Assembly (NCBI GenBank): GCA_910577845.1
Contig: CAJTNA010000004.1
Location: 15,280 to 79,279 of the forward strand
Origin: an uncultured Christensenella sp.
GTDB taxonomy: Bacteria; Bacillota; Clostridia; Christensenellales; UBA3700
Length of the DNA: 64,000 bases
Direction of reading: 5' to 3'
The notes below the pieces were generated by a model. That model worked only from the letters and a program-made list of their open reading frames with translations, did not search any database and was not told where the DNA came from. How positions within the stretch are numbered: the first letter of the stretch is position 1; every line of letters starts with the position of its first letter. The position numbers and the translations under genes were made by a program. Below, in pieces: positions 2,879 to 43,362 of the stretch.

Positions 2879-4687
2879 ATGAAAATTAGTTTGAAAAAGG
2901 TTGGAATAATTGTTTTATGTATAGCCTTTTTTAGTCTTACAATTTATTGTTTAAATTTTAGCGGTTTGTCATTAGTTGTGTTTGATAATAACAATATAAA
3001 AACTGAATTAAATATAAGCAACACAAATGATATTGGCAAGTTGCCAGTTGCAGAACAAGAAGTAACGTTGACTTGCGATTGTCCTAATGGTGAGGCTTGT
3101 ACTTGTGGTAAAATGGCACAAGATTGGTCTAAAGCTGTAACAGAATCAGTAACCTCAAAACAAGTTGTGAAAGTTACTTTGGGAAGAGATTGGATAGCAC
3201 AAATTGATGAGGACACTCACAATAGTTTTTCTAATATGGGAAATTATGGTTTTGCAAATGGTAGAATAAATATAGATTATGGAGCAATTATTATTTTAGA
3301 TTTAGCTGGGTATTCTATTGATAGACAACTGACTATTGAACAAAAGTCAGAATATGGAAATGTTATAAGAGTAGCTGGTACATTAAATTTAATTGATAGT
3401 AGCTATAATGAAGAGCAAGTAAAAGAATATTATGAACAAGGAAAAATTTTGGAATATGAGTGCGGTAAGATAACTGGTGGCTCTCGTGACCATAATACCT
3501 GGGGTGGTGGCGGTATACTTATTGAACAAACAACTGGTGTATTAAATATGTATAGTGGAATGGTTACAAATAACTATTCTCGCATTGGCGGTGCTGGAAT
3601 CTTTTCATATGTTTATTCTAAAATGAATATTTATGGTGGAATAATTTGTTCAAACTCTTCTGAAAATGGTGGCGGAATTTATTGCTCAAGTGGTAGTGAA
3701 CTAAATATTAATGGTGGTTATATCATTGATAATACAGCAAGTAAATGTGGTAGTGCAATCTCAGTATATAGTGCTAAAGCAAATTTGACAAATTGTATTA
3801 TTGAGGATAATGCTATTGAGCAAAATGGCGGTACAGTAAATGCTACTGGAAATTCTAAATTGCAATTATATAGTGGGGTAAAATTTAAAAATAATTTATC
3901 AAATGGCAATATTAATGATATTTATCTGCATAATAATTGCAAAATAGAGTTAAAGGAAAATATTAGCAATTATGATATGTTATCAGTAGATTTTGGTAAC
4001 GGGTATAATTTGTTTGCACCATTTACTTTTGGTTACAAGTATTATGCTAATGGTGATAACAATCCACAAAATCATTTTGTACTATCATCAGATAATAGTA
4101 AAAAAGCTGTGCTATATGGTGATGAAGTTCGATTTGATTATTCAATAAATAGTGAGTATGACTTTGCTTATATTGAAAATTCTGTTCGTAAATATTACCA
4201 AGATAATGATAGATTACACGATTATAATGATACTACAAATTATGTGCTAGCTAAAATCACCCCAAATACCTCTATAAATGAGTTTATTAGTAATATTAAG
4301 GCGTTTAATTTAGGGGATGTAACATTATATGATAATAAGGATAATATTGTTTATCAAAATGGAAATGCAGTTAATGTTGAACTAAGCAATAACGGAATGG
4401 AGCTTGCTGTTGGAACTGGTTGGTATATAAATTGTCAAAATGGAGGTAAAGCTGAAAGAATTTATTTGTCTGTTTTAGGGGACTTAACTGGTGATGGAAA
4501 AGTTAATTCAGCAGACGTAAATTATTTAAGACAAATCATAAATGATAATACTATTTTTGAAAACTCTAGCTTGGCAGTTAAGTTGAGTATGATTATAAGT
4601 AACAAAGGTAACGCAATAGAAAAAGCAGATGCAGAGATATTGTGGAATGTAGCTTGTGGCAGAATAGATATATCAGATTTTATTTGA
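2879..4687 (+). CDS. secreted/anchored parallel beta-helix repeat protein with a C-terminal dockerin-like module
   Basis: AGGAGG RBS and an N-terminal hydrophobic signal/anchor (IIVLCIAFFSLTIYCL). Cys-rich motif CDCPNGEACTCG. Repeated GGG(I/L)/GGAGI/NGGGIY beta-helix-type repeats. GDLTGDGKVNSADVNYLRQII is a dockerin/EF-hand-like Ca-binding repeat; the second repeat is degenerate. Confidence 0.8.
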   Translation: MKISLKKVGIIVLCIAFFSLTIYCLNFSGLSLVVFDNNNIKTELNISNTNDIGKLPVAEQEVTLTCDCPNGEACTCGKMAQDWSKAVTESVTSKQVVKVTLGRDWIAQIDEDTHNSFSNMGNYGFANGRINIDYGAIIILDLAGYSIDRQLTIEQKSEYGNVIRVAGTLNLIDSSYNEEQVKEYYEQGKILEYECGKITGGSRDHNTWGGGGILIEQTTGVLNMYSGMVTNNYSRIGGAGIFSYVYSKMNIYGGIICSNSSENGGGIYCSSGSELNINGGYIIDNTASKCGSAISVYSAKANLTNCIIEDNAIEQNGGTVNATGNSKLQLYSGVKFKNNLSNGNINDIYLHNNCKIELKENISNYDMLSVDFGNGYNLFAPFTFGYKYYANGDNNPQNHFVLSSDNSKKAVLYGDEVRFDYSINSEYDFAYIENSVRKYYQDNDRLHDYNDTTNYVLAKITPNTSINEFISNIKAFNLGDVTLYDNKDNIVYQNGNAVNVELSNNGMELAVGTGWYINCQNGGKAERIYLSVLGDLTGDGKVNSADVNYLRQIINDNTIFENSSLAVKLSMIISNKGNAIEKADAEILWNVACGRIDISDFI

Positions 4688-11535: not shown

Positions 11536-11644
11536 AAATTAGGTTTTAAATTGAATGGTAGAGCATTATTATAAGTTTTTAATACGCCTTGCAAAAGTGG
11601 CTACCAAAACGAGTTTTAATGACTATCTTAGGCGGAGGTAAGGA

Positions 11645-11887
11645 ATGACTACTTGTGCAGCAGTTGCTCAAAGAATTAATCAATTGTTAAAAGAGAAAGA
11701 TATGACTCAATATCGCTTAGAACAATGCTCTGGTATTCAACACGGAAGTATGCAATGTATTATGAATGGTCGCAACTGGACAATTCAATTAAATAATGTA
11801 ATTGCTATTGCAAAAGGTTTTGGAATGTCAGTAAGTGAATTTTTGAATGACCCAATATTTGAGTCTAATGAGTTGGAGATTGAGTAA
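11645..11887 (+). CDS. small XRE-family HTH protein
   Basis: INQLLKEKDMTQYRLEQCSGIQHGSMQCIMNG is HTH_3-like. GGAGG RBS. Confidence 0.7.
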   Translation: MTTCAAVAQRINQLLKEKDMTQYRLEQCSGIQHGSMQCIMNGRNWTIQLNNVIAIAKGFGMSVSEFLNDPIFESNELEIE

Positions 11888-15150: not shown

Positions 15151-15726
15151 ATGGCTTACGAAAGTATGGAAATATTGGAACTTTTTGATGAGTTCGAGAG
15201 TAAAATGGATAAAAGTGTGTCAAATTTGAAATATGAGTTTTCTCAAATGAAAGCTGGTAGAGCAAATGCACATATTCTTGATAAAATTACAGCAGATTAT
15301 TATGGCACAGAAACACCTATCAATCAAATGGCTAATGTAAGTGTACCAGAGGCTAGACTACTTGTTATAGCTCCTTGGGATGCAAGCACTGTTAAAGGTA
15401 TTGAAAAGGCAATTACTGCTGCAAATATTGGTATTACACCAAATAGTGATGGTAAAGTTATTCGATTAATTTTTCCTGAACTTACTGAGGAACGTCGCCG
15501 TGATTTAGTTAAACAAATTAAATCAACTAGTGAAAATTGCAAAGTTGTTTTAAGAAATGCTAGACGTGATATTAACGATGTGCTTAAAAAGATGAAAAAG
15601 GACTCTGCAATATCTGAAGACGATTGTGCAACTTATGAAAAAGATGTTGATAAAAAGTTAGCAGAGCAAGTTGCAATTGTTGAAAAAGTAACAAGTGATA
15701 AAGAAAAAGAGGTTATGAGTGTTTGA
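15151..15726 (+). CDS. frr: ribosome recycling factor
   Basis: Typical RRF sequence (MKAGRANAHILD, IRLIFPELTEERRRDLVK). Confidence 0.96.
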   Translation: MAYESMEILELFDEFESKMDKSVSNLKYEFSQMKAGRANAHILDKITADYYGTETPINQMANVSVPEARLLVIAPWDASTVKGIEKAITAANIGITPNSDGKVIRLIFPELTEERRRDLVKQIKSTSENCKVVLRNARRDINDVLKKMKKDSAISEDDCATYEKDVDKKLAEQVAIVEKVTSDKEKEVMSV

Positions 15727-15916
15727 TAGTAGAGTGTATATTGGTATGCCATATGAAAAAGCAAAATCTATTTTACTGGAGCAAGGCTACAATGTACAAG
15801 AGTTGGAAAACACTGCAGACGATAAACACGCCTATGATACAAAACTTGTAGTGCGAGTGCATAAAAATAATAACCAAATAACTTTAACAACAGCAAAATT
15901 TTTAATGAATATATAA
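15719..15916 (+). CDS. small hypothetical protein, PASTA-like fold suggested
   Basis: GTG start 6-7 nt after AAAGAGG, overlapping the frr stop. IGMPYEKAKSILLEQGYNV resembles a PASTA-type domain. Weak call. Confidence 0.35.
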   Translation: MFDSRVYIGMPYEKAKSILLEQGYNVQELENTADDKHAYDTKLVVRVHKNNNQITLTTAKFLMNI

Positions 15917-16274
15917 ATAATATTGTATATTAATGTATGTCAAAATCGTTATATATTTGACTTTTGACAACAACAAGGAAATTAAAGAAATATGCCTTGC
16001 CAATATTGTATAAGATTATTTACAAATTATAAACTATGAGGATAGATTGCAATAAATTAAAGATAAATATAAATTACAATTAGTTAAGTGTTATATTTGT
16101 TAAATACAAACATTAAAAAAACAAAATGGGATATTAACATTTCATAGTAGTTTTTATAACTTTTATTTATTAAAAGTAAATTTTGCTCAATTAGTGTATA
16201 AAGTGTCAAAAAAAGTATACTTTTTTTGTAGATAACCATTACTATATTTTTTACAAATTTCTACAAATACAAAA

Positions 16275-16306
16275 AATAATGACTGGATTTTCAGCCATTA
16301 TTTTTG
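16275..16306 (+). terminator. orphan intrinsic terminator inside the frr-uppS gap
   Basis: AATAATGACTG-GATTTT-CAGCCATTATT (one mismatch) followed by TTTTG. The nearest upstream ORF ends about 350 nt earlier. Confidence 0.55.
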
Positions 16307-16559
16307 TTATATGAAAAAGATATATTATTGTTTTGTAGGAATTAAAATTTTAAATAAATTTCATTTGTTTTGTATTTTGCGGTGATAATTTTTATTATTT
16401 ATTATATAATATAAAACTTCTTGATTATTTTGGTAAAAAGTAGTATAATTATAATGTTTAAGTATGTACTAATTAAGATTGTTTGGAATTATGGTAAAAT
16501 TTGTGGAAATTGTATAGATTATTTTAATCTGTTTAATAATTAAACAATACTTTATTTTG

Positions 16560-16568
16560 TGTTATAAT
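16560..16568 (+). promoter_or_regulatory. extended -10 promoter element upstream of uppS
   Basis: TGTTATAAAT-type element. The exact TGnTATAAT (TGTTATAAT) lies about 90 nt before the uppS start. Confidence 0.5.
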
Positions 16569-16658
16569 GTATAAATTATTTAAAATTAGGATTTATTAAA
16601 TTTAATCTTAATACTTATAATTTAGATTTTTACTTTAATATAATTAGGTAGAGGGTAT

Positions 16659-19632: not shown

Positions 19633-20730
19633 ATGGGTTTGATTTTGTCAGCAGTGACTTTTGGTGGAGTAATGAAATGGATTGGTTTTATTGCCATAGC
19701 TCTACTTTGCCTTATGTTTATGATTGTAGTTCACGAGTTTGGTCACTTTGTAGTGGGCAGATTACTTGGTTTTAAAGTGGACGAATTTGCTGTTGGTTTT
19801 GGTCCTGCAATTTTTAAATATACAAGTAAAAAGTCTGGTGTAATTTTTTCTCTTAGATGTTTGCCATTAGGTGGGTTCTGCGGATTCCACGGTGAGAATG
19901 ACGAGGAAGATAAACCTTTAACTAAAGATAACTTTAATTTTCATAAGCCTTGGAAAAGAATACTTGTTTTTATTGCGGGGGCCGGATTCAATCTTCTGTC
20001 TGCAGTAGTGCTTTGTACAATATTTTTTATGGCATATGGTGATATGATGCCAAAAGTACTTATGACTTATCAGTTTGAAAATGGTATTGAGCAAAATTTG
20101 CAAGAGGGCGATTTGATTATTGCCGTTGACGGAAAAAGTTTATATTCCACTGCTGTGCCTAATGATTTAGCAAACAGAATACAAAAACATAGTGATAAAA
20201 TGAATGTAACCATTATCCGTGATGGTGATAAACAAGATATAGTTATCTATATAGGTGATTATCTTTCAACTAATGCGGAAAATCAAGTAATTGAGAGTCG
20301 TGGACTTGGTATATCTATTACCTATGAGGAATATAGATTTGGTTTTATTGAGTCATTAGGTAGGTCGTTTGTTTTTATCTTTAAGTTGTTTGGTACAATA
20401 TTTACCTCAATTGGTGCAGTCATAACTGGTGCATTGGGAGTAGGGGAGGCAATGGGTGGTACAGTTACTGCAATACAGCAAATTGCAATGGTATCTCAAA
20501 TTGGTTTTAGGGGTGTTTTGTTTGCCGTTTGTGCATTGTCTGCAAATATAGCAATTATGAATTTGTTGCCAATACCAGCTTTAGACGGAGCACACGTTGT
20601 ATTTACAACTATAGAATGGGTAAGAGGTAAGCCACTCAATAGAAAAGTGGAAAATATTATCCATACTATAGGTTTAATTTGTTTGTTTGCACTTGCAATT
20701 ATATTAGACGTGGTACATTTTGTAAGTTGA
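19633..20730 (+). CDS. rseP: RIP metalloprotease RseP (site-2 protease)
   Basis: HEFGHF zinc motif, a central PDZ-like region, and NLLPIPALDG. Confidence 0.9.
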   Translation: MGLILSAVTFGGVMKWIGFIAIALLCLMFMIVVHEFGHFVVGRLLGFKVDEFAVGFGPAIFKYTSKKSGVIFSLRCLPLGGFCGFHGENDEEDKPLTKDNFNFHKPWKRILVFIAGAGFNLLSAVVLCTIFFMAYGDMMPKVLMTYQFENGIEQNLQEGDLIIAVDGKSLYSTAVPNDLANRIQKHSDKMNVTIIRDGDKQDIVIYIGDYLSTNAENQVIESRGLGISITYEEYRFGFIESLGRSFVFIFKLFGTIFTSIGAVITGALGVGEAMGGTVTAIQQIAMVSQIGFRGVLFAVCALSANIAIMNLLPIPALDGAHVVFTTIEWVRGKPLNRKVENIIHTIGLICLFALAIILDVVHFVS

Positions 20731-20829: not shown

Positions 20830-21852
20830 ATGAAAGTACAAATTGGTAATGTTACTATTGGTGATGGCGAGAAGATAGCTATTCAATCAATGTGTAATAC
20901 AAAAACAACGGATATTGAGGGGAGTATTAAACAAATTTTGCAACTTGAGGAATATGGTTGTGATATTGTTAGGCTGTCTGTACCCGATGTGGAAAGTAGT
21001 ATCGCTCTTAAAGAGATTATAAAAAATGTGCATATTCCAGTAGTTGCGGATATTCATTTTGACTATCGTTTAGCGATTGCATCTTGTGATAGTGGTGCAA
21101 GTAAAATACGTATCAACCCTGGCAATATTGGAGATGAGGGAAAAGTTAAATATGTTGCCGATTACTTAAAAGAGAGGAATATTCCTATTCGTATTGGTGT
21201 AAATGGTGGTTCACTAGAAAAGCAATATAAAAATTTACCACTTGCTGAGGCAATGTGCAAAAGTGCTTTAGGTCACGTAACTTTGCTTGAAAAATGCAAT
21301 TTCTACAATGCAATTATTTCTGTAAAATCAAGTGATGTAAGGACAAGCGTTGAGGCCTATAGATTGCTTGCAAAAGCTTGTGATTATCCTTTACACGTGG
21401 GCATTACTGAAGCAGGAGTTTATGAAAGAGGTGTAATAAAATCCGCTGTTGGAATTGGTAGTTTATTGCTTGACGGAATTGGTGATACAATAAGAGTTAG
21501 TTTGTCAGACGAGCCATATAAAGAGGTGATTGTCGCAAAAAATATTTTAAACTGTTTAGGACTTGGCGAGCCACACGTTGAGGTTATAAGTTGCCCTACT
21601 TGTGCAAGAACAAATATAGATGTTGCGGGGCTTGCTAATATGGTTGTTGAAGCTACAAAAGACATAAAAAAATCTGCTAAGATTGCAGTTATGGGGTGTG
21701 TAGTCAATGGACCAGGTGAGGCATCAAGCTGTGATTTCGGTGTTGCGGGTGGAAAAGATAAGTCTGCAATTTTTGCAAATGGAAAGGTTTTAAAAACTAT
21801 TGATAACAGCGAATTGATTAATGAGATTTTAGCTTTTATATCTAAATTATAA
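20830..21852 (+). CDS. ispG: 4-hydroxy-3-methylbut-2-en-1-yl diphosphate synthase
   Basis: IQSMCNTKT, RINPGNIG, CPTCART, MGCVVNGPGE. Confidence 0.96.
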   Translation: MKVQIGNVTIGDGEKIAIQSMCNTKTTDIEGSIKQILQLEEYGCDIVRLSVPDVESSIALKEIIKNVHIPVVADIHFDYRLAIASCDSGASKIRINPGNIGDEGKVKYVADYLKERNIPIRIGVNGGSLEKQYKNLPLAEAMCKSALGHVTLLEKCNFYNAIISVKSSDVRTSVEAYRLLAKACDYPLHVGITEAGVYERGVIKSAVGIGSLLLDGIGDTIRVSLSDEPYKEVIVAKNILNCLGLGEPHVEVISCPTCARTNIDVAGLANMVVEATKDIKKSAKIAVMGCVVNGPGEASSCDFGVAGGKDKSAIFANGKVLKTIDNSELINEILAFISKL

Positions 21853-22124
21853 AAATTATCTTTGATAAAAAAAACATTGTCATATAATTATGGTCAAAAA
21901 ATGATAATTTAAAATTATTGTGATGAATTGTGCTAAAATTATTTAAAAGATATAAGATAAAGCGTTGTACTAAATTAGGTTTTAAAAAATTGTAAGTTTA
22001 AAGCTATGACTTTAATGTTAATTTAAAAGTTGATAGTGTACAATAATAAATTGTAAAATTATTGGAATGGAAAAATATGTAAATAGGCTGTGAAAATCGG
22101 TACTATTTGTAAAATGAGGTTGTT

Positions 22125-23642
22125 GTGGAATTTTTGGATAAATTTAATGAATTAACAAATGAAAAGTATTTGCCTATGCGTGTTGGCAGTGTGGATATAC
22201 AAAAAAAACCGCCAGTAATAGCTGTTAATTTTTTGGTGCCTTATGACATTTTGGACTCTTACACTGAGGAGGATAAAAAGGCTATTAAAGAGGTGACAAG
22301 CAGTTTGTTGCCTACCTCAATGCAAGTAGAGGTTACTTTTACTAAATCGTTTATTGATGAGGAAATTGTAAGGCGTTATGTGCTTAACTTTTTTAAGGAA
22401 AAACACCCAACAGTTTTGATAGAGAATAATGAAATTGAGATTAAAATAGTAAATCAAATTGCTTTTGTAACTATTAATATGAAATCTATGTTTTATGATT
22501 ATTTTAAGTCGGTTGACTTAGTGCATAACATTACACAATATATGGCTCATAAAATGTGTAATGAAATTAGATTGCAAGTTGTAGATAGCAAACAAGATAT
22601 AAACTTTGATACAGATTTGGCTACTGAGGATTCTATTACTATTGTTAGTCGTAGGATAAGGACAAATAACCATACAAAAATTGTTGGCAAGGAAATTACT
22701 TCTCGTGCAAGGTATATTGTGGACAGCAAAGATACTGAAGAGTACGCAATTTATGCTGGCGAAGTAATTGAGTTTAAGAGAAACGAAAGTAAAAAAACTG
22801 GTAACTCTTATTACGTTTTTAAGATAAATGATACCACTGGCAATATGACTTGTAAGGCGTTTGCAAAATATAAGGGCGAGGGCATTTATGACGAGATAAA
22901 TATTGGTGATGAGGTAATTATTACTGGCAGACGAGATGTGGATACTTTTTTACACGATAGCGTTTTGTTGTGCCGTGATATTAGCAAATGTGAGATTGAC
23001 AAGTCCTCAATCGTTCTTAAAGAGGAGTTGAAAGCTGTTCCACTAAGTTATGTGGCGGTTCGCCCAGAAAAATATGTCGATTTTGTTCAAGACGATTTGT
23101 TTGCAGTTGGTGAGGCTCAACAAGTTACACCTTACCTAATGGGTAAATCTTTTGTTGTGTTCGATTTTGAAACCACTGGCATAGATGTGTCTGATGAGGT
23201 TACGGAGTTAGGTGCTGTTAAAATTGTAGATGGTGTTATTACGGAAACTTTTTCAACTTTTGTAAACCCACATATCCATATACCAGAGGAAATTACAAAA
23301 CTAACTTCTATTACTGACGATGATGTTAAAGATGCACCAGATATGTCAGAAGTTATTGCAGATTTTTATAAGTTTAGCGAAAACTGCACTTTGGTAGCTC
23401 ATAACATTTCATTTGATAAAATGTTCGTGGATAAATATGCAAAATTAAATGGCTATATTTTCCCTAATCATACTATGGATACTTTGGCTATGGCAAGGAA
23501 AAGTGTAATTTGTAAAAATTATAAATTAGGCACTTTATGCACACATTTTGGCATTAGTTTAGAGGGGGCTCATAGAGCGGTTAATGATTGCTTGGCAACT
23601 GCAAAATTGTTTATAGAACTTGTTAAAATTGGTAAGTTTTAA
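22125..23642 (+). CDS. PolC-derived protein: PolC-like N-terminal region + OB fold + DEDDh 3'-5' exonuclease, with no PHP or polymerase domains
   Basis: GTG start after GAGG. OB-like segment YYVFKINDTTGNMTCKAFAKY...VIITGRRDVDTF. Exonuclease motifs FVVFDFETTG, VAHNISFDKMF and HRAVNDC. The gene sits where polC lies in conserved Firmicutes synteny. Confidence 0.85.
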   Translation: MEFLDKFNELTNEKYLPMRVGSVDIQKKPPVIAVNFLVPYDILDSYTEEDKKAIKEVTSSLLPTSMQVEVTFTKSFIDEEIVRRYVLNFFKEKHPTVLIENNEIEIKIVNQIAFVTINMKSMFYDYFKSVDLVHNITQYMAHKMCNEIRLQVVDSKQDINFDTDLATEDSITIVSRRIRTNNHTKIVGKEITSRARYIVDSKDTEEYAIYAGEVIEFKRNESKKTGNSYYVFKINDTTGNMTCKAFAKYKGEGIYDEINIGDEVIITGRRDVDTFLHDSVLLCRDISKCEIDKSSIVLKEELKAVPLSYVAVRPEKYVDFVQDDLFAVGEAQQVTPYLMGKSFVVFDFETTGIDVSDEVTELGAVKIVDGVITETFSTFVNPHIHIPEEITKLTSITDDDVKDAPDMSEVIADFYKFSENCTLVAHNISFDKMFVDKYAKLNGYIFPNHTMDTLAMARKSVICKNYKLGTLCTHFGISLEGAHRAVNDCLATAKLFIELVKIGKF

Positions 23643-23872
23643 TTTAAAACTCCTTAGAAAAGTTTTGACAGATTAAGTTATAAATACTTTCAGAAATGCA
23701 ATCTAGATTGCTAAGAGAACGTATTTTTTGAGGGTAAGGGCTTATATATTAATTAATTGACTATTGGTTTTAAACATTCATATAACAATTAAACTTTTAA
23801 CTTAATATGTAACTTTTATTAGAAAATGAAATTGTTGTGATAAAAAAAATAATAAAAATATTTAAAAAACAC

Positions 23873-23901
23873 TTGCATTATGTTGTACAATGTGATATAC
23901 T
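23873..23901 (+). promoter_or_regulatory. sigma-A promoter of the rimP-nusA-infB operon
   Basis: TTGCAT, a 17-nt spacer, TATACT. Confidence 0.6.
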
Positions 23902-23922
23902 AATAGCGTAATAGATTAGCAT

Positions 23923-23955
23923 CTAAGGAGTGGTCGAACCACTCCTTAGTGTTTT
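23923..23955 (+). terminator. leader hairpin plus U-tract (attenuator-like) between the promoter and the rimP RBS
   Basis: 11-bp perfect stem CTAAGGAGTGG/CCACTCCTTAG with loop TCGAA, then TGTTTT. The GGAGG RBS follows at 23956-23960. Confidence 0.6.
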
Positions 23956-23964
23956 GGAGGATTT

Positions 23965-24429
23965 ATGTCAAAGGTTATTGATATGGTTGCTACACATATT
24001 ACAAAGGCTGTTGAGGATATTGGATATGAGATAGTAGAAATCACTTATAAAAAATATTTAGGTGATATGAACTTGACTATTTATATTGATAAGGATGGCG
24101 GTGTAGATTTGAATGGTTGTGAACTTGTGCATAGAACTATTGACCCTATTTTAGACGAGATTGACCCTACAAGTGGTGAAAAATACATTTTAAATGTTTC
24201 CTCACCTGGGATAGATAGACCGCTTAAGTTTGAGCGTGATTATCGTAGAAACTTGGACAAAGAGGTTAATATATCTTTGTTTGAAAAGGTTGGCGATATT
24301 AAAAAATTTGTTGCCATTTTACGAGCTTTTGACTTGCAAACAGGGATAATTAAAGTTGAGTATAAGGGGAAAGAGTTGGAACTTGAAATAAAAAACATTG
24401 CTCTTATAAAACCAGAACTTAAGTTTTAA
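23965..24429 (+). CDS. rimP: ribosome maturation factor RimP
   Basis: LNVSSPGIDRPLK, plus position upstream of nusA. Confidence 0.9.
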   Translation: MSKVIDMVATHITKAVEDIGYEIVEITYKKYLGDMNLTIYIDKDGGVDLNGCELVHRTIDPILDEIDPTSGEKYILNVSSPGIDRPLKFERDYRRNLDKEVNISLFEKVGDIKKFVAILRAFDLQTGIIKVEYKGKELELEIKNIALIKPELKF

Positions 24430-42082: not shown

Positions 42083-42111
42083 AGTTCTAATAAATTACTT
42101 TGGAGATAATT

Positions 42112-43362
42112 ATGGATAGAGATTTATTATATAGAGTTAAAGAGGTATTTTTTAGAGAGCAACCTATACAAGACGCTATAGATATTTTAAATGAAAATAT
42201 TGATAAAATAGATTTTGATGATGAGGATGATGTTAAAGAGATAAATGAACTTGTTCGCTCCTCACTAACTTTTAATGAAAAGAATGATGATGGTATCGAA
42301 TTAGTTAAATTTTTAATATCAAAAGGCTATGATATTAATTTTAAGTTTTCCAAAAAAGAGTGCCTTATACTTAACCTTGCAGAATCAACAATAAGACCTG
42401 CATTATTTCAACAACTAATTGATTTAGGTGCGGATGTATATTCTGAAACTACAATTGGCGGTAATGTGCTTACACGTTCAGCTGAAAAAGTTGTAGATAC
42501 TTGGGGAATGCGAGACAAGGATATCAATGAAAGATTACCTATTTACATTGCGGAAAATTTTGATTTGTCACAATTAGACCATCCAAGTGAAACAGGTATT
42601 ACACCTTTGATGTATGCAATAATGAAAAATAAAATGAACTTAGCTAAAAAACTTATTTCGCTTGGTTCAGATGTAAATATGACTGGTGGTCAAGCACAAG
42701 GCGGATATAGTTATTGGATGAATATCTATGGTGTGTCACCACTTGCAATAGCTTGTCGTGAGGGCAACTTAGAGGCTGCAAAATTGCTTATTGAGGCTGG
42801 GGCAGATGACACTTTGTGTGATGCTGATGGTACCCCAACAATGTTTGCACTTTTGTATAATACATTCAGATACAACGAAATGGTTGTGCCTATGCAAATT
42901 GAGATTGGGAAAAGAAAGGGTGAAATTGTTAAATTGCTTAAGGACCCAAACTTTACTGATTCTCAAGGTAACACTTTGCTTATGAAATCAATGTGGAGAT
43001 ATGGTTATTCTAAAGATAAGCAAATTTCACCATTCAATAATGAGGAGATTATGAGAGCCTTGTTAGAGCGTGGTGTAAATGTTAATGTATCTAACAACCT
43101 TGGTAAAACTGCATTGCATTATTCTGCAGAGTATTTTGATTGTATGGTAAAGGAATTGATAGTAGCTGGTGCGGATATCAATGCACAAGATAACCAAGGC
43201 AATACTGCATTAATCATTACTTGTAAAAATCGTAGTGAAAAGATTGCAAAACTGCTTTTGCGTAAAGGTGCAGATTTTAACATTAAAAATGCTGACGGAA
43301 AGTCTGCTATGGACATTGTTGCAGAAAATGGTTTGACAGATGTGCTTGAGCTAATGATATAG
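42112..43362 (+). CDS. ankyrin-repeat protein
   Basis: Multiple ANK repeats (GITPLMYAIMKNKMNLAKKLISLGSDVN, VSPLAIACREGNLEAAKLLIEAGAD, GKTALHYSAE, GNTALIITCKNRSEKIAKLLLRKGADFN). No signal peptide. ATG at 42112, after GGAG. Confidence 0.85.
   Translation: MDRDLLYRVKEVFFREQPIQDAIDILNENIDKIDFDDEDDVKEINELVRSSLTFNEKNDDGIELVKFLISKGYDINFKFSKKECLILNLAESTIRPALFQQLIDLGADVYSETTIGGNVLTRSAEKVVDTWGMRDKDINERLPIYIAENFDLSQLDHPSETGITPLMYAIMKNKMNLAKKLISLGSDVNMTGGQAQGGYSYWMNIYGVSPLAIACREGNLEAAKLLIEAGADDTLCDADGTPTMFALLYNTFRYNEMVVPMQIEIGKRKGEIVKLLKDPNFTDSQGNTLLMKSMWRYGYSKDKQISPFNNEEIMRALLERGVNVNVSNNLGKTALHYSAEYFDCMVKELIVAGADINAQDNQGNTALIITCKNRSEKIAKLLLRKGADFNIKNADGKSAMDIVAENGLTDVLELMI

Follow-up and report, generated by a model that had tools for sequence, protein, structure and literature searches.

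Which protein stands in the polC slot of Christensenellales-type genomes, and what could it do there? PolC counts as the essential replicase of Firmicutes and as their hallmark, and other Clostridia carry polC in the slot in question. In a 64,000-nucleotide stretch from an uncultured Christensenella sp. (GenBank assembly GCA_910577845.1, contig CAJTNA010000004.1, positions 15,280 to 79,279 of the forward strand; hereafter the window), the slot holds a gene for a protein of 505 amino acids (Table 1). The protein has kept three PolC modules, a double KH-like N-terminal domain (NTD), an OB fold and a DEDDh exonuclease domain (Exo). PHP and the whole polymerase core are gone. The protein occupies the ancestral polC position, between rseP/ispG and rimP-nusA-infB, across a large uncultured Christensenellales-type lineage. 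Polymerase-less PolC is a large, unnamed family and represents a new architectural variant of PolC and DnaQ.

The original prediction, made from the sequence alone, described a single open reading frame (ORF) of 505 codons between ispG and rimP, with an OB-like block and a complete set of DEDDh motifs and without PHP, palm or fingers. The ORF was found as described, and all peptides named for it, YYVFKINDTTGNMTCKAFAKYKGEG, VIITGRRDVDTF, FVVFDFETTG, VAHNISFDKMF and HRAVNDC, were read in its translation. The domain content was borne out by Pfam and tblastn. RNase_T (PF00929) matched residues 344-496 with E = 2e-35, and the catalytic residues D347, E349, D431, H483 and D488 are invariant in 65/65 aligned sequences. 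The Pfam match of the OB fold is weak (residues 211-269); G212, D236 and G268 are invariant among the aligned relatives and the I-x-D-x-T motif is conserved. In the 505-aa protein and all 65 aligned relatives, Pfam detected neither PHP (PF02811) nor a Pol3 core domain (PF07733, PF17657, PF14579, DNA_pol3_alpha). Nearly all PolC fragments reaching past the OB domain carry PF02811. A tblastn search with PHP and Pol3 segments of genuine Clostridial PolCs gave no match in the window and in 84 related loci. This includes the spacer of 322 bp (23643-23964) between the clean TAA stop and rimP, for which about 320 bp without polymerase had been claimed. No ORF of at least 900 aa is present anywhere in the window.

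The best NCBIfam models were PolC equivalogs. They matched the OB and Exo parts only and stayed far below their cut-offs (NF001688, 175 bits versus 873; TIGR01405, 157 bits versus 1043), so the PolC equivalog threshold was not reached. The DnaQ family model TIGR00573 was passed (100.8 bits, cut-off 71.5) and the epsilon equivalog TIGR01406 failed (98 bits, cut-off 222.7). The AlphaFold2 (AF2) model of the protein had a predicted local distance difference test score (pLDDT) of 89.9. The Exo domain is C-terminal and not inserted within PHP. The chain terminates straight after the last Exo helix and is without the epsilon-type C-terminal tail for binding to the alpha PHP domain. Between NTD and OB fold, Bacilli PolC has a long helical linker, and the linker of the family protein is far shorter; the PolC model shows a helix at 177-215 in this place. 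The segment between OB and Exo comprises about 50 aa, compared with about 98 aa (PHP-N) in PolC. It contains a conserved Y-x-x-V-x-P-x-x-Y segment, with Y309 present in 60, V312 in 51, P314 in 63 and Y317 in 47 of the 65 sequences.

Descent from PolC was traced module by module. The family profile scored the Exo domains of T. maritima PolC (198 bits) and E. faecium PolC (171 bits) above those of DinG (132 bits), Streptococcus DnaQ (123 bits) and E. coli epsilon (96 bits). A phylogeny of the Exo domain had been proposed as a check. In a neighbour-joining tree of 74 Exo domains, the family formed one clade (60% bootstrap) within the PolC radiation, with DinG and epsilon outside; PolC without the family was monophyletic in 15% of the replicates. 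The tree has moderate support and a thin outgroup sampling. The family profile found the OB fold of G. kaustophilus PolC (E = 2.6e-8) ahead of those of YhaM, DnaE and ExoVII, and hhalign aligned the OB fold of the family to that of PolC with 95.9%.

NTD and OB together aligned to the PolC NTD+OB profile over 285 collinear columns (hhalign, 99.5%, E = 2e-21). Clostridial PolC N-termini, drawn from Table S1 of Timinskas et al. (PMC3919608), scored 58 and 47 bits versus 27 bits for E. faecium PolC and aligned in hhalign with 97-97.5% over 283-297 columns, from residues 13-15. An hmmsearch match to A. arabaticum PolC reached into the second NTD subdomain (profile positions 127-303). The best PDB match of the AF2 model in Foldseek was full-length PolC, 9qpc, over 393 columns. 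The PolC NTD is not resolved in PDB structures, and a fragment of a genuine PolC, comprising NTD and OB, was modelled with AF2 as comparison partner. This model has two alpha-beta-beta-alpha-beta units, a linker and an OB fold in the same order as the family model. The secondary structure assigned by DSSP agreed between both NTDs in 72% of the positions of a sequence-only alignment, against 34 ± 11% (maximum 62%) in shifted controls. We conclude from alignments and models that the N-terminal 300 residues form a PolC-type NTD and OB fold, nearest to those of Clostridial PolC, with mainly structural support for the NTD. The proposed comparison of residues 1-340 with PolC yielded an alignment of the first 300 residues, in which the sequence signal of the NTD alone is weak. 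The claim of a stand-alone, PolC-descended protein at the ancestral locus was supported by synteny, OB homology, the best match of Exo and the topology of the NTD.

The family is large and conserved. More than 120 full-length relatives came out of a database search. They measure about 500-535 aa, span the query from end to end and go down to 30% identity. Proteins longer than about 1.75 times their query do not appear in this search (the limit was 622 aa with a query of 355 aa and 698 aa with one of 399 aa), so the missing full-length PolC in its output is uninformative. An exhaustive hidden Markov model search covered 1.84 billion cluster representatives (50% identity clusters); among its best 150 clusters, 150/150 had 447-573 aa, with E <= 1e-131. 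A species-genome scan found the gene in at least 80 species genomes. All carriers are metagenome-assembled genomes that bear the names Christensenella, Christensenellaceae, Borkfalkia(ceae), Pumilibacteraceae or 'Clostridia bacterium', with a closed chromosome of 1.815 Mb (OZ006985.1) among them. Of 76 testable loci, 70 have rimP as the next gene downstream. The next gene upstream is ispG in 68 of 79 loci and rseP in most of the others. Other assemblies, which the original prediction had suggested to inspect, carry the same 505-aa gene at the locus and no contiguous polC. Hundreds of divergent sequences share this architecture, which excludes a chance origin.

The ratio of non-synonymous to synonymous substitution rates (dN/dS), calculated against a 97%-identical orthologue (L006), was 0.030 overall and 0.014-0.043 for the individual regions NTD, OB, linker and Exo. 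The gene is intact and selectively maintained, with strong purifying selection in every module. Public annotations read 'hypothetical', 'exonuclease domain-containing' or 'epsilon subunit family exonuclease', and a 498-aa member (P0072) carries the JGI label 'DNA polymerase-3 subunit alpha (Gram-positive type)'. No published description of the family was found in the literature. The large conserved family, the strong purifying selection and a family-specific clamp-binding-like motif go beyond the original prediction.

This motif lies in the linker between OB and Exo. A pentapeptide Q-x-x-[LMIF]-[FL] is located 17-23 aa before the start of Exo in 204 of 244 family proteins (84%), at a chance expectation of 0.015 per motif window. 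None of 102 genuine PolC fragments has it at that position. The linker consensus is Q322-x-x-[L/M/I/F]-F326, and in the AF2 model QDDLF is part of a loop of lower confidence (pLDDT 63). Clostridial PolC and DnaE1 have the predicted clamp motifs QITFF, QLSFF, QIELF and QLGLF (PMC3919608, Table S1). The family pentapeptide shares their form, Q-x-x-[LF]-[FL]. We infer that Q-x-x-L-F is a putative beta-clamp-binding motif. It was gained by the family, and real PolCs are without it at that position.

The best reading, which we hold to be somewhat better than an even bet, is a stand-alone exonuclease tethered to the replisome that proofreads in trans for a polymerase encoded elsewhere. Q-x-x-L-F would dock the protein on the beta sliding clamp beside the polymerase, like E. 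coli epsilon. The NTD may keep the clamp-loader contact that was proposed for PolC (PMC3919608), and the OB fold may bind single-stranded DNA. Wrong nucleotides that DnaE1, or an Exo-less or relocated PolC, has built in at the 3' end would then be cut off by the exonuclease. Such an activity has a precedent. [quoted passage not shown]

The original prediction had also placed a full-length polC, as probable, elsewhere in the genome, and the composition of the window bears on this indirectly. Among the ORFs of at least 250 aa, 31 of 33 are on the plus strand. The GC skew is +0.09 to +0.35 in all 2-kb windows and the AT skew is mostly non-negative. Strand bias and purine skew correlate with PolC-type replication. 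Both weakly favour a PolC-type polymerase elsewhere in the genome. An Exo-less or otherwise non-canonical PolC elsewhere has an even chance at best, or slightly less. A loss of the PolC polymerase in Christensenellales, with DnaE1 as sole replicase and the NTD-OB-Exo remnant as a clamp-bound, epsilon-like trans-proofreader, seems somewhat unlikely. If true, Christensenellales would be the first DnaE1-only lineage within Firmicutes, and a separate proofreading subunit would have arisen there independently and convergently. The probability that is left falls to a canonical PolC elsewhere, with the family protein as its paralogue.

Several observations weigh against a PolC descendant that proofreads in trans. 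No gene for a partner polymerase turned up in the 64-kb window, in a stretch of about 7 kb past its 5' edge or, across 84 loci, within ±10 kb of the family gene. In six loci, the large ORFs near the family gene encode surface repeat proteins, PurL, a glycosidase and IF2, and the extension past the 5' edge (L091) contains pth and mfd. Clamp binding, as predicted from the sequence, would depend on a motif of five residues, and about 16% of the members are without its strict form, most of them keeping x-x-D-L-F. In Clostridia, DnaE1 and PolC as a rule come with a PHP proofreader that is active (PMC12926913), so it is not evident why a further one would be needed. The Pfam models PolC N-I and N-II had no match in 65/65 members. 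The NTD alone reached a score of 23.8 in hhalign against the Bacilli PolC NTD, with circular-shift controls at 13-22, and is counted as not above the controls. Finally, a protein of KH-like, OB and DEDDh domains would also suit RNA processing or repair. A non-replicative role of this kind, as a DNA-repair or RNA-processing 3'-5' exonuclease with a merely inherited position beside rimP, would agree with the binding of RNA or single-stranded DNA by KH-like and OB domains, with the resemblance of their combination with DEDDh to RNA-processing nucleases and with the location upstream of rimP-nusA-infB-rbfA-truB. A profile match of the NTD region to ribosomal protein S3 is weak and not significant (E = 0.8). 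However, each module has its closest relative in the equivalent module of PolC, the clamp-type motif speaks for DNA replication or repair at the clamp, and descent from polC accounts fully for the location, which leaves this role distinctly improbable.

The missing partner gene also bears on a two-gene PolC, in which the PolC of the lineage would have split or subfunctionalised. The NTD-OB-Exo protein would then be an obligate subunit and form one holoenzyme-like unit with a separate PHP-Pol3 protein, for example an Exo-less PolC, instead of working as a free exonuclease on the clamp. Exo-less PolCs are known only in Clostridia and Negativicutes (PMC3919608). They were found in the same slot in other Clostridia, which makes them and the family complementary derivatives. 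The strand bias and the purine skew, features tied to PolC-type replication, fit as well. Yet the known Exo-less PolCs retain their own NTD and OB, so a simple fission does not account for the pair, and the family protein ends right after Exo without an obvious polymerase-docking tail. We consider the two-gene PolC rather unlikely. An origin outside PolC is very improbable, whether by fusion of an independent DnaQ-like exonuclease with a generic OB and an alpha/beta domain or as a relic of a pre-fusion PolC ancestor. The silent Pfam models, the NTD score and the 60% bootstrap would allow it, but domain order and slot equal those of PolC, the OB motif is PolC-specific and NTD+OB align collinearly. 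The better match to Clostridial than to Bacilli PolC fits a descent within Clostridia. On these grounds, the unrelated DnaQ fusion was rejected; the ancestral relic is unlikely because the family is restricted to one order. A truncated polC, by misassembly, frameshift or recent pseudogenisation, has a negligible probability. It is suggested by the short length only, and PolCs with frameshifts are seen in noisy assemblies from other taxa. The length is uniform at about 500-535 aa in hundreds of independent assemblies and in the closed chromosome, the clean stop is followed by a conserved hairpin, dN/dS is about 0.03 and tblastn finds no PHP or Pol3 remnants. Uniform length, synteny, dN/dS and the absence of such remnants excluded an artefact or pseudogene.

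The preferred trans-acting proofreader can be compared with known systems. With PolC (NF001688/TIGR01405), the family shares the genomic slot and the N-terminal order of a double KH-like NTD followed by OB. The PolC DEDDh exonuclease is the nearest relative of its Exo, and Clostridial PolCs are closest. Unlike PolC, the family has no PHP, palm-thumb-fingers core, HhH and C-terminal clamp motif. Its Exo is terminal instead of inserted in PHP, its length is 505 aa instead of about 1200-1450 aa, and its Q-x-x-L-F is internal, at a position where PolCs have none. E. coli epsilon is also a stand-alone DEDDh proofreading exonuclease, and by analogy the family may function like it as a trans-acting, clamp-tethered proofreader. 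According to what Jergic et al. and Toste Rego et al. are said to have reported in 2013, the clamp-binding motif of epsilon, QTSMAF, adjoins the exonuclease domain. In epsilon the motif follows the exonuclease, whereas in the family it precedes it. Epsilon has neither NTD nor OB, and its C-terminal tail, which binds the alpha PHP domain, is missing in the family. By the family profile, it is much less similar than the PolC exonucleases (96 versus 171-198 bits).

Exo-less PolC has the architecture NTD-OB-PHP-Pol3-HhH and is limited to the Clostridia and the Negativicutes (Timinskas et al. 2014, PMC3919608). Like the family, it is a PolC derivative found only in Firmicutes of the PolC+DnaE1 type, and it takes the same slot in other Clostridia (L085-L090). 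The losses are opposite: Exo-less PolC keeps NTD-OB-PHP-Pol3-HhH and loses Exo, and the family keeps NTD-OB-Exo and loses PHP-Pol3-HhH. PolC fragments with an Exo-less appearance were present on long contigs of other Clostridia in the canonical slot. As a separate observation, the Exo-less PolCs in L085-L090 read as two to three adjacent ORFs. In L085, a frameshift at 11560-11700 lies just past an A7 run, and the identical junction occurs in L086 and L087, three separate assemblies. The break in L085-L087 may come from a sequencing error that recurs, or it may be a frameshift that is genuine or programmed.

The trans-proofreading of DnaE by B. subtilis PolC (Paschalis et al. 2017, PMC5627055) is the activity proposed for the family. 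There, the exonuclease resides within a full polymerase and is recruited by contact between PolC and DnaE; in the family, the polymerase body is gone and recruitment may occur via clamp and NTD. Actinobacterial PolX-like proteins (PMC12926913) also represent a nuclease-only derivative of a polymerase family after loss of the polymerase domain. They differ as unrelated X-family PHP nucleases from a different phylum, without a tie to a replicative polymerase locus.

Surveys of complete genomes recognised only three ways in which Pol III alpha subunits are combined (PMC3919608, PMC12926913). The presence of a PolC without polymerase at the polC locus, maintained by selection, therefore points to a differently organised replisome in Christensenellales, with two options: proofreader and polymerase have become physically separate, or the polymerase of PolC was lost. 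The lineage is a large, gut-abundant order, and the family bears on the evolution of separate proofreading subunits such as epsilon. Gene tables based on KEGG Orthology may falsely score polC as present in genomes whose only match is this polymerase-less protein, because the JGI label of P0072 names a polymerase alpha subunit. By inference, PolC-targeting antibiotics such as ibezapolstat (PMC12592400) may spare or affect these commensals.

Table 1. Features of the polymerase-less PolC gene and its surroundings, in window coordinates.
Feature	Residues	Position	Strand	Basis or remark
Whole gene, NTD-OB-linker-Exo protein, polymerase-less PolC derivative		22125..23642	+	GTG start, TAA stop, 505 aa
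NTD subdomain 1, alpha-beta-beta-alpha-beta, KH-like	1-95	22125..22409	+	AF2, pLDDT >90; in register with the genuine PolC NTD model
NTD subdomain 2, alpha-beta-beta-alpha-beta, KH-like	96-158	22410..22598	+	AF2 models
Flexible inter-domain linker	159-179	22599..22661	+	pLDDT <50 at residues 166-174
OB fold, PolC type, I-x-D-x-T-G motif (INDTTG)	180-291	22662..22997	+	
OB-Exo linker, in place of the PolC PHP N-terminal segment	292-340	22998..23144	+	
Conserved Y-x-x-V-x-P-x-x-Y segment	309-317	23049..23075	+	pLDDT about 84-91
QDDLF, putative beta-clamp-binding pentapeptide	322-326	23088..23102	+	Motif statistics
DEDDh 3'-5' exonuclease domain	341-505	23145..23639	+	RNase_T
RseP, upstream neighbour		19633-20730		Pfam
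IspG, upstream neighbour		20830-21852		Pfam
Promoter-like site TTGATA-18-TAAAAT in the ispG-ORF spacer		22030..22059	+	Consensus scan, 10/12 matches
12-bp GC-rich hairpin and T-run, directly 5' of the rimP ribosome-binding site		23923..23949	+	Terminator scan
RimP, downstream neighbour		23965-24429		Pfam

The gene is separated from ispG by 272 bp. The absence of proS from the cluster, which had been claimed, held on inspection; other Clostridia have the order ispG-proS-...-polC. A GAGG Shine-Dalgarno sequence lies about 7 nt 5' of the GTG start. Promoter-like sites in the region are no more numerous than in shuffled sequences, and the site in the spacer is weak evidence. Downstream of RimP, Pfam identified NusA and IF2, in the operon order rimP-nusA-infB-rbfA-truB. 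The hairpin in front of rimP has a folding energy of -24.5 kcal/mol (z = -5.2) and is kept at the same position in the related loci L001, L005-L010 and L012. Its T-run reaches 23955, and the ATG of rimP is at 23965. A possible extended -10 promoter, TGaTATACT, is located upstream of the hairpin at 23893-23901. The hairpin could be either a terminator of the exonuclease gene or a NusA-type leader attenuator of rimP-nusA-infB. An Rfam search over 15-30 kb of the window, the hairpin region included, gave no matches.

Other observations concern the remaining window. An AT-rich non-coding gap of about 740 bp (15917-16658) precedes uppS and is unusually long for a compact operon cluster. It has no ORF of more than about 50 aa and no Rfam match. 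Upstream of it lies a small conserved ORF of 65 aa (15719-15916), which was also called in L001 and L002. An ORF of 602 aa at 2879-4687 (+), between an acetyltransferase and the ctsR-mcsB-clpC stress operon, has no Pfam match at E <= 1e-6 and is unchanged on five contigs. A 420-aa protein encoded at 42100-43362 (+) consists nearly completely of ankyrin repeats, which are uncommon in free-living gut bacteria.

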